From a virus (Duplodnaviria > Heunggongvirae > Uroviricota > Caudoviricetes), in IMG/VR virus record IMGVR_UViG_2778261277_000020, positions 1 through 12,945 of that record: a DNA stretch of 12,945 bases, one strand, 5' to 3'. A program made the translations under genes and the position numbers. Every line of letters begins with the position of its first letter. Position 1 is the stretch's first letter. Under the pieces are notes generated by a model that searched no databases, had not been told where the DNA came from, and saw only the letters and a program-made list of their open reading frames with translations. Of the stretch, positions 8,251 to 11,303 are shown in pieces.

Positions 8251-8523
8251 ATGCTAGATAGCACTCGCGAAAAAATTAGGCAGAAATACACTCAGGCTGA
8301 AATAGGTCGTTATATGGGGGTCGCCCAACAGACCGTTTGGCAATGGTTTAGCTTTGGCGTCCCCCCAAAGCAGGTAATTCCGCTATGTCAGCTAATGAAG
8401 TGGGAAGTTACCCCGCATGAAATTCGCCCAGACATTTACCCTAACCCAACTGACGGTTTACCTGTTGGATGTAAGGCTAACACACCAAATGCACCGGAGA
8501 TGATTCATGAAAATCAAGCATGA
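8251..8523 (+). CDS. ydaS: Cro-like HTH protein of the YdaS family (90 aa)
   Basis: Strong SD GAGGAGGGG then ATG 8251; HTH AEIGRYMGVAQQTVWQW and the EIRPDI motif I associate with YdaS/Cro-like proteins; divergent from the repressor gene. Confidence 0.75.
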   Translation: MLDSTREKIRQKYTQAEIGRYMGVAQQTVWQWFSFGVPPKQVIPLCQLMKWEVTPHEIRPDIYPNPTDGLPVGCKANTPNAPEMIHENQA

Positions 8524-8932
8524 ACATATCCGCATGGCGATGAATGCCTGGGCGCATCCGGACGGCGAAAAAGTACCGGCTGCGAAAATTACCAAAGCGT
8601 ATTTCGAGCTGGGAATGACGTTCCCGGAACTGTATGACGACAGCCATCCGGAAGCCCTGGCTCGCAATACTCAGAAAATTTTCCGCTGGGTGGAGAAAGA
8701 CACCCCTGATGCGGTTAAAAAAATTCAGGCGTTGTTACCAGCTATCGAAAAAGCAATGCCACCTCTGCTGGTGGCCCGAATGCGCAGCCATAGCTCAGCC
8801 TATTTTCGGGAACTGGTGGAGACGCGGGAACGACTGGTGAGAGACGCTGATGATTTTGTCGCAGTGGCGATCGCTGGTTTCAACCAGATGAATCGTGGTG
8901 GCCCTGCAGGAAATATTGTGGCTGTGCATTGA
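8507..8932 (+). CDS. ydaT: YdaT-like protein (CII functional analogue), 141 aa
   Basis: Starts MKIKHEHI..., as I recall for Rac / CP-933P YdaT; overlaps ydaS by 17 nt; GGAGA SD 7 nt upstream. Confidence 0.75.
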   Translation: MKIKHEHIRMAMNAWAHPDGEKVPAAKITKAYFELGMTFPELYDDSHPEALARNTQKIFRWVEKDTPDAVKKIQALLPAIEKAMPPLLVARMRSHSSAYFRELVETRERLVRDADDFVAVAIAGFNQMNRGGPAGNIVAVH

Positions 8933-9003
8933 CTCGCAATATTCATACCGGATCACTTCCGGCAATTTGTGAGTAAAAAGATTCGGTATCAGAAGAGGTG
9001 AGT

Positions 9004-10044
9004 ATGGCTAACGCCTGGCTCAGATTATGGCATGACATGCCAAATGATCCTAAGTGGCGAACAATTTCCAGGGTGTCAGGACAGCCAATCGCAACAGTGA
9101 TGGCTGTGTATATCCACCTTCTGGTGAGCGCGTCACGAAATGTCACGACATGTCACGGCGTGTCACTACGTGGTCACATTGATGTCACGACGGAGGATTT
9201 AGCAAGTGCGCTTGATGTGACGGAAGAGGTAATTGATTCAATTTTACAGGCAATGCAGGGGCGGGTACTTGATGGAGATTTAATCTCTGGATGGGAAAAA
9301 CGCCAGGTACTGAAAGAGGACAATGGCAACGTTTCACAAACCGCGAAATCCCCGGCAGAGCGCAAGAGAGCGCAGCGCGAGAGGGAAAAATTACGAAAAC
9401 AGAATGAGGGGGGGCATGACGAGTCACGCATATGTCACGACATGTCACGACGAGTCACGACAGATAAAGATACAGATAAAGAATTAAACCCCACACATAA
9501 CGCGCGCGTGCGCGAGAGTGCTCCGACCAGTGAGTCGAATGGCGTGCCGTTGCAGGCAGCGGAACCTGATTACCTGGAAGGCCTGAGCGAACCCATCGGG
9601 AAATTTCCGATGACTGATGGCTGGCATCCGTCGCCGGATTTTCGACGGCGGGCAGCTCTGTGGGGAGTGGCTCTGCCGGAGCCGGAATTTACACCAGCTG
9701 AACTTGCCGCCTTCCGGGACTACTGGGCAGCGGAGGGTAAAGTTTTCACACAGGTTCAGTGGGAGCAGAAATTCGCCCGTCACGTAAATCACGTCAGGGC
9801 GCAGGTTAAACCAGTCAGCAAGGGGGGGAACCATGCAGCAGCACCAGGTGGCACCGCATCACGGGCAGTTCAGGAAATTCGGGCAGCACGTGAGCAGTGG
9901 GAACGTGAAAACGGATTTATCAGCGACGGAAACGGCGTGGAAGCTGTGGGAACTCATGGGGGAGGTTTATTCGAACCGCTGGACCCAGAAGAACGGGGCC
10001 GCACCTTCGAAGCTCTGGATTGCACAGATTGGTGCGATGACTGA
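9004..10044 (+). CDS. Replication initiator, lambda O-like (YdaU / DUF1376-type N-terminal domain), 346 aa
   Basis: ATG 9004 with AGAGG 5 nt upstream; N-terminus [36 protein letters not shown]; two iteron clusters inside the gene, as for lambda ori within O. Confidence 0.7.
9132..9190 (+). repeat. Iteron cluster 1: six direct repeats with GTCAC core at about 10-11-bp spacing
   Basis: CGTCACGAAA TGTCACGACA TGTCACGGCG TGTCACTACG TGGTCACATT GATGTCACGA read directly. Confidence 0.6.
9423..9482 (+). repeat. Iteron cluster 2 (four (T/A)GTCACGAC repeats, 10-bp spacing) followed by AT-rich direct repeat CAGATAAAGA x2: probable origin core
   Basis: GAGTCACGCA TATGTCACGA CATGTCACGA CGAGTCACGA CAGATAAAGATACAGATAAAGA read directly; iterons plus adjacent AT-rich tract is the classical lambdoid ori layout. 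Confidence 0.6.
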
Positions 10045-10510
10045 GCAGCAAATCCGACAGGTCTGCCGCCAGTGCATGGACCGCTGCCGGGCGGGTGAAA
10101 CATGGCCTCCGGACCTGGCTGAGTTTGTGGCGCTGATTTCGGAGAGTGGGGCAAATCCATTCGGTCTGACGGTGGATGCTGTGATGGAGGAGTACCGCCG
10201 CTGGCGCAACGACTCCTGGCGATACGACGGAAGCGATAAATACCCGTGGTCTCAGCCTGTGCTGTATCACATTTGCCTCGAGATGCGGGCAAAAGGGGTT
10301 GAGCGTCAGATGACCGAAGGGGAGTTAAAACGACTTGCAGAACGGCAACTGGCGAAATGGGCAAAACATGTTGGTATGGGCCTGAGTGTTCCGCCTGTCC
10401 GGCGACAACTGGCTGCACCAAAACGCCCGTCGGGACCAACGCCAGTTGAGTTGCTGAAACAGGAGTATGAACGCCGGAAAGCGGCTGGTTTTGTTGGAGT
10501 TGAGAAGTAA
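9833..10510 (+). CDS. Replication protein, lambda P-like (helicase loader), about 225 aa; start uncertain
   Basis: C-terminal half ([40 protein letters not shown]...[16 protein letters not shown]) resembles lambda P as I recall it. ATG 9833 has a G-rich SD (AGGGGGGG, 4-nt spacer) but implies a 212-nt out-of-frame overlap with the O-like gene; alternative starts at 9956 or 10037. Confidence 0.6.
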
Positions 10511-10532
10511 TTTTTACCGGGAGGAAATTTTA

Positions 10533-11303
10533 ATGGAAACTGTTTTTGATGCACTGAAAGCAATGGGAAAAGCCACGTCGGTGGAACTGGCTACGCGACT
10601 TGATATCAGTCGTGAAGAAGTGCTGAACGAGCTGTGGGAACTCAAAAGAAATGGCGTCGTTGATAAAACTGGTCACACCTGGTTTCTGGCTGGCGAAGGT
10701 GAATCCCGGGTAACCGAAGAGCGGCCAGTAAAATCTGAAGCACAGGATATGCTGACCGGGGAGGTCGAACAAAAAGTTACCGCAGACATGATGATTGAGT
10801 TTATCGGTCAGGAGGGGGCTAAAACGTGTGAGGAACTGGCGGGTAAGTTCGGTGTCAGTACTCGCAAAGTTGCTTCCACGCTGGCTGTGGTAACCGCAAC
10901 GGGGCGGCTGGCACGCGTTAATCAGAACGGTAAATTTCGTTACTGCATGCCGGGCGATAAGTTACCAGCAGAGCCGAAATCCGTGCCGGTAACGGAAAAT
11001 GATGGTAAGGCCTTTCCTCAGCCAGCAGGTGTTGCGTTACCAGTACAGGAAGGGGCAACACAGGAAGATATAAAAACAGAAACTGTAGCGGACATTGTGC
11101 AATCGTTGCCATCGTTTACTGAAACGCGAGCGGATGACCTGGTTTTACCATCGCTGCATATGGCAAACCGCGAATTGCGTCGGGCGAAAAATCATGTTCA
11201 GAAGTGGGGGCGTGTCTGCGCCGCGCTGCGGGAGCTGAACAAGCACCGGGATATTGTTCGACATATTACGGATTCTTCCCGCCGTGTTGCATCGGAAAAG
11301 TGA
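10533..11303 (+). CDS. Hypothetical protein (256 aa) with two winged-helix-like segments
   Basis: ATG 10533 with GGGAGG 8 nt upstream; two segments with wHTH-like pattern (ATSVELATRLDISREEVLNELWELKRNGVV; KTCEELAGKFGVSTRKVASTLAVVTATGRLARV). Confidence 0.6.
   Translation: METVFDALKAMGKATSVELATRLDISREEVLNELWELKRNGVVDKTGHTWFLAGEGESRVTEERPVKSEAQDMLTGEVEQKVTADMMIEFIGQEGAKTCEELAGKFGVSTRKVASTLAVVTATGRLARVNQNGKFRYCMPGDKLPAEPKSVPVTENDGKAFPQPAGVALPVQEGATQEDIKTETVADIVQSLPSFTETRADDLVLPSLHMANRELRRAKNHVQKWGRVCAALRELNKHRDIVRHITDSSRRVASEK

Follow-up and report, generated by a model that had tools for sequence, protein, structure and literature searches.

A long conserved overlap of the O-like initiator and P-like helicase loader genes in a lambdoid Escherichia coli prophage: evidence for a probable dual-coding cassette

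The O/P junction of the prophage

The DNA analysed here (the window, all 12,945 nucleotides (nt) of the stretch taken from IMG/VR record IMGVR_UViG_2778261277_000020) comes from a Rac/Qin-like lambdoid E. coli prophage, with 99.9% identity to strain QA-1986 630 (NZ_CP101920). It carries an O-like replication initiator gene followed on the same strand by a P-like helicase loader gene, and the end of the first shares 212 nt, in a different frame, with the start of the second. The features of this junction are as follows.

9004 to 10044, plus strand: O-like replication initiator gene (open reading frame (ORF) list, Pfam DnaT, phmmer, RefSeq coding sequence)
9833 to 10510, plus strand: P-like helicase loader gene, full length 225 residues
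9833 to 10044, plus strand: proposed dual-coding overlap, 212 nt (O residues 277–346 in frame 0, P residues 1–70 in frame +1)
9821 to 9829, plus strand: Shine–Dalgarno (SD) element of P, AGGGGGGGA, which contains the G7 run 9822–9828
9956 to 9958, plus strand: in-frame ATG, Met42 of P, used as the start in some annotations (180–184-residue forms)
10037 to 10044, plus strand: ATGACTGA, with the ATG of P Met69 (the RefSeq P start) overlapping the O stop TGA 10042–10044

The O-like frame is open from 8977 and offers GTG 8998 and ATG 9004, the latter being the RefSeq start; counted from ATG 9004 the product has 346 residues. RefSeq names the coding sequence at these coordinates 'DnaT-like ssDNA-binding domain-containing protein'. 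The P-like frame is +1 relative to O and opens after a stop at 9785–9787, being open from 9788. Its first start is ATG 9833, four bases past the G7 run ('AAGGGGGGGAACCATG'), and the sequence context 5′ of this ATG is AAGGGGGGGAACC. Further P-frame ATGs follow at 9956 and 10037, with GTGs at 9848, 9890 and 9905. An earlier reading of the letters alone (the sequence-only reading) had listed an O-like frame open to 10044, these three ATGs, a G-rich SD before the first of them and a 212-nt overlap; every one of these coordinates was reproduced and the SD is present. It had left three readings of the overlap, namely a long dual-coding stretch, an O gene extended by loss of its stop, and a P gene that starts late.

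The P-like product matches PF06992 (Phage_lambda_P) over residues 56–188 with 58.3 bits (cutoff 26) and PHROG 109 ('P-like helicase loader') over residues 19–220 with an E-value of 2.5e-61, the latter covering profile positions 22–235 of 236. Because W70 of lambda P aligns with W62 of the window P, the 225-residue product is the counterpart of full-length lambda P (233 residues). It consists of a disordered leader (residues 1–28), an N-domain from about residue 29 whose structure resembles that of the SPP1 G39P N-terminal domain, and a C-terminal domain of the lambda P type, in which the fold of the DnaB-binding domain of lambda P is recognised. From this homology P would be expected to bind DnaB and to load it at the phage origin. 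In the AlphaFold2 (AF2) model residues 1–26 have a predicted local distance difference test score (pLDDT) below 50, and helices 29–46, 48–54 and 60–67 score about 84. Residues 36–68 are the best-conserved N-terminal part in an alignment of homologues down to 50% identity; M42, W50, K53, N54, G55, P58 and W62 are invariant in a 20-sequence alignment (A2), and residues 1–35 are variable, with indels among homologues. The sequence-only reading had called the P sequence between 9833 and 10037 protein-like, which holds for residues 29–68 (conserved and predicted helical) and fails for residues 1–28 (variable and predicted disordered). In the O-like product, an N-terminal origin-binding part precedes a DnaT-like domain; a linker then leads to a C-terminal helix, which is followed by a disordered tail.

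Openness of both frames and partition of constraint

The junction was compared across 38 genome loci from Escherichia, Citrobacter, Enterobacter, Klebsiella, Pluralibacter, Phytobacter, Kluyvera and seven further genera (Salmonella, Pectobacterium, Serratia, Rouxiella, Samsonia, Buttiauxella and Erwinia). Tests of openness and of SD motifs used 22 non-redundant loci, and positions written –n are counted from the WPPDL(AEF) anchor of P. Both frames are open across the whole overlap in 22/22. Where the locus is intact, O terminates at –59 to –44 (–23 in L020), the P frame is already open at –255 or even further upstream, and the overlap measures 185–224 nt when the SD-preceded ATG is taken as the P start. 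Among the loci, L034 and L039 depart from this pattern through frameshifts, L036 has its O stop earlier, and L033 holds an orphan P gene.

Synonymous resampling of the block –165 to –60 with the P protein held fixed predicts an O-frame stop in 16.6 of the 22 loci (minimum 11), and none is observed; with the O protein fixed, a P-frame stop is expected in 14.2 loci and again none is found. In the upstream block (–240 to –165, O protein fixed) P-frame stops are expected in 5.0 of the 22 loci, against none observed. Both frames are thus open beyond the synonymous null, as expected of a dual-coding pair. Elsewhere in the O and P genes off-frame stops occur once per 19.6–22.1 codons, so that 70 open codons would arise by chance in 2.5–4% of cases. 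For the window taken by itself, 35% of synonymous resamples that preserve O leave the P frame open, and 4.8% of those that preserve P leave the O frame open. Double openness in this one sequence is only mildly unusual, and the decisive evidence for dual coding is comparative.

A codon-phase diversity profile was obtained from the codon alignment of O tails, with phases counted in the O frame. The segments concerned are given below.

9592 to 9801, plus strand: DnaT-like three-helix domain of O (residues 197–266), coding for O only
9790 to 9850, plus strand: linker of O, carrying the ribosome-binding site and start codon of P; also a recombination junction between O cores and the tail-plus-P module
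9847 to 9920, plus strand: first half of the overlap, constrained by O according to its phase signature; encodes the O C-terminal helix (about 9856–9909)
9937 to 10041, plus strand: second half of the overlap, constrained by P according to its phase signature; encodes the P helices of residues 29–67

From 9685 to 9790 the profile carries an O codon signature, the third positions of the DnaT domain having diversities of 0.51–0.62 vs 0.13–0.36. The linker is unconstrained, with about 0.5–0.6 in all three phases and a pLDDT below 50. Across 9847–9920 the diversity of O phase 3 (0.58–0.69) exceeds that of phases 1 and 2, and the second codon positions of P are the most variable; here O forms its C-terminal helix (residues 98–115 of the AF2 fragment), a motif kept from Serratia to the Vibrio phages, and the P frame gives the variable leader. 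At about 9930 the signature changes from O to P. In 9937–10041 it is O phase 1, equivalent to P phase 3, that is most diverse (0.42–0.57 vs 0.17–0.42 for the other phases), and the O frame here reads as a predicted disordered tail (pLDDT <50) ending ...LDCTDWCDD. This comparison of codon positions, which the sequence-only reading had proposed as a check, returned a signature for each protein in its own half, and purifying selection on each is found somewhere in the overlap. Nucleotide diversity (pi) was taken from 78 close relatives (94–96% identical), drawn from a viral-contig scan with a P alignment, which serve diversity statistics and not breadth; it is 0.016–0.019 in the overlap vs 0.049–0.060 in P-only sequence, or one third.

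O could be functionally complete near 9920, its last ~40 codons being a tolerated, functionless read-through into P. The O residues in 9937–10041 are indeed dictated by P codons, with O third positions the least variable (P 'QKNGA', for example, reads as O 'EERG'), and W343 gives way to R when an Ile codon of P changes synonymously. The tail is moreover predicted to be disordered, and other DnaT-domain O proteins stop about 25 residues past the domain. Such a tail would, however, be expected to acquire the O-frame stops that are missing from all 22 loci and that recur every 19.6 codons just downstream. Between E. coli and Vibrio phage D67, nearly all loci also keep the O end point to within ~15 nt, and three unrelated O cores carry this tail as an in-frame fusion. 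We therefore regard a functionless tail as distinctly unlikely. The steady position of the O stop, from E. coli to Vibrio phage, likewise contradicts the proposal that O was extended by loss of a stop and is open by chance, and no homologous O among the 22 non-redundant loci was seen to end near the equivalents of 9830–9860. Conservation of the O tail exceeds the synonymous null by a z of about 11. We also considered the 'LD..DW' of the O tail as an independent motif akin to the lambda O end 'LDLTNTDW', and set it aside: its residues follow P codons and W and R alternate, and it is not used as evidence.

The start of P

An SD-like motif lies 4–13 nt 5′ of the first P-frame ATG region in 21/22 loci, compared with 15% of background ATGs, and the SD-preceded ATG sits at –240 to –273 from the WPPDLAEF anchor, again in 21/22. 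In most relatives the SD is GGAGGT, the window having the G-run form, and in most loci the P frame opens just a few codons 5′ of this ATG. Our placement of the start leans mainly on the conservation of this SD–ATG pair because openness of the P frame is only moderately informative in the first half of the overlap. These comparisons make ATG 9833 very likely the start of P, and ATG 9956 is probably an internal Met.

Database homologues of P fall into lengths of 140, 153–157, 180–184 and 212–223 residues, which reflect four different start choices in annotation. Many of the entries of 179–184 residues begin at the equivalent of Met42 (ATG 9956). Were this the true start, the overlap would be 89 nt, with 9833–9955 open in the P frame but untranslated. 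Met42 is invariant in the 20-sequence alignment, an ATG stands at –147 in nearly all enterobacterial loci, P residues 1–28 are unconserved and predicted disordered, and the O protein makes the openness of 9833–9955 only weakly surprising. Upstream of Met42, nevertheless, are conserved residues and a predicted helix (residues 29–41, 'AW.LWE'). The –147 ATG is missing in L022, and the residue is Leu in Vibrio phage D67. The upstream ATG has its SD in 21/22 loci, whereas 9956 is preceded by 'ctgtgggaactc'; the orphan gene in L033 begins 16 codons upstream of Met42. A start at Met42 is therefore unlikely in our judgement.

RefSeq places the P start at the equivalent of 10037 in both records examined, and phage records use the equivalents of 10037 or 10076. 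In the RefSeq model P would be coupled to the O stop at ATGACTGA, the upstream opening of its frame being due to chance. Stop–start overlaps of the ATGA type are the norm in lambda and phi80 O/P, and the 35% of resamples with an open P frame in the window are compatible with chance. This start would, however, delete 33 highly conserved residues and the three predicted helices of the N-domain. Homologues have M or L at position 69, and the loci of Serratia, Rouxiella and Pectobacterium lack an ATG there. All 22 loci have an open P frame where interruption is expected in 14.2, and 9937–10041 has the codon-phase signature of P. The late start at 10037 that the sequence-only reading had entertained is thus contradicted by conserved, structured P residues upstream of it, and comparison with homologues does not bear out a start there; we judge the RefSeq model to be truncated, starting 68 codons too late, and give the alternative very little credence. 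Termination–reinitiation at ATGACTGA yielding a short P isoform was likewise not supported, Met69 and its ATG being absent outside the Enterobacteriaceae group.

Alternatively, an O–P fusion could arise at the G7 run through programmed +1 frameshifting or slippage. The run sits exactly at the frame junction; PHROG 15931 (482 positions) matches O residues 3–347 and then P residues 4–221, as a fused ORF would, and database entry P0184 is an O-to-P chimera. The run is, however, present in only 5/78 close relatives, most of which carry GGGGGTAA or GGGGGTGA, which place a P-frame stop two codons ahead of the ATG; distant loci have GGAGGT, and in the window the P frame opens only at 9788. A conserved slippery run with the downstream frame open across it is thus absent, and programmed frameshifting, which we rejected, is extremely improbable. 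Chimeras or fusions of O and P in the databases comprise PHROG 15931 and entries P0184, P0024 and P0086, one being a protein of 219 residues that begins in the O frame and continues in the P frame. Such entries probably arose from indels or sequencing mistakes close to the homopolymer run or in the overlap.

Modularity and a possible role of the cassette

The arrangement extends to Vibrio phages. Phage D67 has an ATG at –270, an O stop at –59 and an overlap of 212 nt, exactly the geometry of the window. Its P is similar to the window P only over residues 1–132 (30% identity, ungapped, E-value 2e-24) and differs in the C-terminal half, and similarity between the two O proteins is limited to the last 31 residues. 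Further Vibrio-phage loci (D173/L131, L133 and L134) have overlaps of ~170–206 nt. The O cores in these phages are HTH_36/DnaD_N-like or DUF6291, not of the DnaT type, so the tail is joined in frame to three unrelated cores, and by Pfam the Vibrio-phage P proteins are without the lambda P C-terminal domain. The converse exchange is seen in L047 and L048, whose DnaT-domain O proteins diverge just past 'FARHVNH.R' and are paired with a lambda-type P through an overlap of 4–29 nt. The O of L047 is near-identical to the window O up to 'FARHVNHIR' and divergent thereafter, with a lambda-O-like tail (LDWNNTDWIEGV vs lambda LDLTNTDWIYGV). By sequence comparison, the O tail and the P N-domain thus behave as one exchangeable cassette.

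With both frames open in 22/22 loci, an own codon signature in each half and the SD–ATG pair kept in 21/22, the long dual-coding stretch is the one of the three original options that stands. We consider it highly probable, on comparative sequence grounds, that the overlap is a genuine and ancient dual-coding cassette at the O/P junction of this lambdoid E. coli prophage. In the mechanism we propose, O and P would be read from one rightward early message. O would be translated from 9004 to the TGA at 10042–10044, and ribosomes would enter the P frame (+1) internally at ATG 9833; the SD of P lies in the one part of O that is free of constraint, namely the linker beyond the DnaT-like domain. Sequence from about 9847 to 9920 would be held by O for its short C-terminal helix, P there reading a disordered leader of free sequence; from about 9937 to 10041 it would be held by P for the first three helices of its G39P-like N-domain, O reading a disordered tail. 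The residues of that tail would be mostly dictated by P codons, with the O frame kept stop-free to a conserved end point. The cassette (O helix and tail, P leader and N-domain) would move as one unit, joining unrelated initiator cores (of the DnaT type in Enterobacterales, HTH_36/DnaD_N-like or DUF6291 in Vibrio phages) and also different loader C-terminal halves. Synthesis of P may be limited because ribosomes translating O run through its start site, and internal initiation of P within O may thus temper synthesis of a toxic loader.

In lambda, the C-terminal part of O and the N-terminal part of P form a type-specific contact. By analogy, we infer that the cassette may encode the initiator–loader (O–P) interface, in which case the overlap would keep the two partners genetically inseparable. 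More tentatively, the ~210-nt cassette could be a portable, self-contained interface, the same nucleotides encoding the docking segments of both proteins, and the same overlap may persist in chromosomal vdhL loci, which have replaced the native helicase loader in Vibrionaceae; this wider proposal we regard as possible but doubtful. If it were true, O–P specificity could not be separated by recombination, and any origin-binding core that gained the cassette in frame could recruit this loader.

Several points weigh against our interpretation. Both RefSeq records examined and several phage records place the P start later. That the P frame is open across the overlap's first half is only moderately informative, with stops expected in ~5/22 loci. 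The 22 loci share ancestry and are not phylogenetically independent, and the z of about 11 for the O tail may be inflated for this reason; residue conservation in the second half of the overlap is in any case largely a by-product of P codons. Finally, this tail always occurs with this P N-domain because both are the same DNA; their co-occurrence therefore says nothing about an interface, whose function is assigned by analogy with lambda.

A literature search found no description of this overlap. It is a long (70-codon) same-strand, out-of-frame overlap of two essential genes of a double-stranded DNA phage, conserved in range from prophages of Enterobacterales to phages of Vibrio; long overlaps in prokaryotes are commonly written off as errors of annotation. 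It also suggests a testable idea, that mosaic lambdoid phages keep initiator and loader compatible through co-encoded contact segments, and the shared N-terminal domain would link the lambda P family to the recently described G39P-like VdhL loaders.

The lambda O/P and phi80 gp15/gp14 pairs differ from the window in overlapping by 4 nt (ATGA), with lambda P in +2, as against 212 nt and +1. The DnaT-like domain in the O core is unlike lambda and phi80; the P N-domain is of a G39P/VdhL-like type, unlike lambda, and phi80 gp14 matches only residues 93–221. Lambda P deleted for residues 9–86 loses function (PMC3640518). The nearest precedent is lambda O′, a minor UGA read-through product of unknown function according to the account of Yates et al. 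(1977) cited in PMC3640518. Like the window O, it draws its C-terminus from DNA that doubles as coding sequence for the N-terminal part of P; unlike it, O′ is a minor read-through product, and the extension in the window is the normal, constitutive end of O and conserved across genera. We note that in lambda (L130, 983 and upstream) the P frame is open for 26 codons 5′ of its ATG, and the O frame runs 34 codons past the UGA to the next stop, consistent with the report of O′ read-through.

The VdhL1 and VdhL2 loaders of Vibrionaceae combine a central G39P-like fold with an N-terminal region that is variable, disordered and essential, are encoded beside lambda-O-like genes, including in Vibrio phages, and have a reported ~30% identity to some PF06992 proteins (PMC11087808). 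The D67 and D173 proteins, which share residues 1–132 with the window P, fit this description and are likened to VdhL by it; the window P differs from the Vibrio-phage proteins in having a lambda P C-terminal domain. The text of the VdhL paper (PMC11087808) makes no mention of a gene overlap, and a protein search with a Vibrio-phage P returned phage relatives only and no chromosomal VdhL.

The classical same-strand phage overlaps, phiX174 D/E and A/B/K and lambda Rz/Rz1, are mostly of one gene embedded in another. They resemble the window in being out of frame over tens of codons, with one partner tending to be disordered where the other is structured. The window overlap differs in joining adjacent essential replication genes end to start, with reciprocal constraint and as a mobile cassette.

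The O core, prophage context and annotation

The Pfam DnaT domain (PF17948) matches residues 203–269 of the 348-residue O ORF with 65.4 bits (cutoff 25), and phmmer matches O to the DnaT structures 6aep and 4ou6 with an E-value of 2e-20 (1.8e-20 for 6aep); the pLDDT of this domain is ~90. The corresponding O residues 197–266 match the C-terminal single-stranded DNA-binding domain of E. coli DnaT (primosomal protein I; E-value 2e-20). DnaT itself is a 179-residue host restart protein without an origin-binding domain or such a tail, and the domain that it shares with O is encoded upstream of the overlap.

Two clusters of 10-bp iterons, (A/G)TGTCACGAC, lie within the O coding sequence at 9130–9195 and 9420–9471, ~290 bp apart; the second is followed by two copies of the direct repeat ACAGATAAAGA (to 9482). 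They presumably form the prophage origin, and their position inside the O coding sequence would fit a lambdoid O-type gene. The iterons impose repeated peptides of the 'CHD/VTT/SRR' type on O. A mosaic junction falls within the O gene at about 9462–9482: phage records match either 8900–9482 (86–88% identity) or 9462–10600 (91–95%), never both, and the origin-binding half of O therefore has a history separate from that of the DnaT-domain/tail/P half. A protein search with the C-terminal part of O gave matches mostly to partial E. coli entries.

For annotation, the 153-residue 'replication protein P' cluster (at least 1000 contigs) starts 68 codons late and loses half of the N-terminal domain, and other database entries use two further P starts. 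Overlap limits of gene finders systematically hide one partner. The O-like gene has been dropped in some Vibrio-phage assemblies because of the overlap: in L131 (879–1694) and L134 (1095–1706) the P-like gene was called at full length, with no call for the O-like ORF. For L133 the overlap was trimmed to 59 nt by the gene caller.

The orphan in L033 (2471–3040, Erwinia sp. MMLR14_017) is a P-like gene of 189 residues between phosphotransferase system (PTS) transporter and LysR regulator genes. It has no O-like gene upstream, starts 16 codons before the conserved Met and is without the long leader. Locus L003 (PP818812.1, 'Actinobacillus phage vB_Apl-pPE4'), attributed to Actinobacillus pleuropneumoniae, has 94% nucleotide identity to this prophage module, and its host assignment looks doubtful.

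In the window, P ends ...AAGFVGVEK* (10496–10510), four residues beyond most close homologues (...AAGFV*). The O/P pair is flanked by a YdaT-family gene (8507–8932) and a DUF1627 gene (10533–11303); further left, the RefSeq annotation of the identical strain has dicB, ydfA/B/C and a cI/cro-like pair. A purely mechanical ORF call would begin at 10467 and share 44 nt with the end of P, but RefSeq has the DUF1627 gene begin at 10533.

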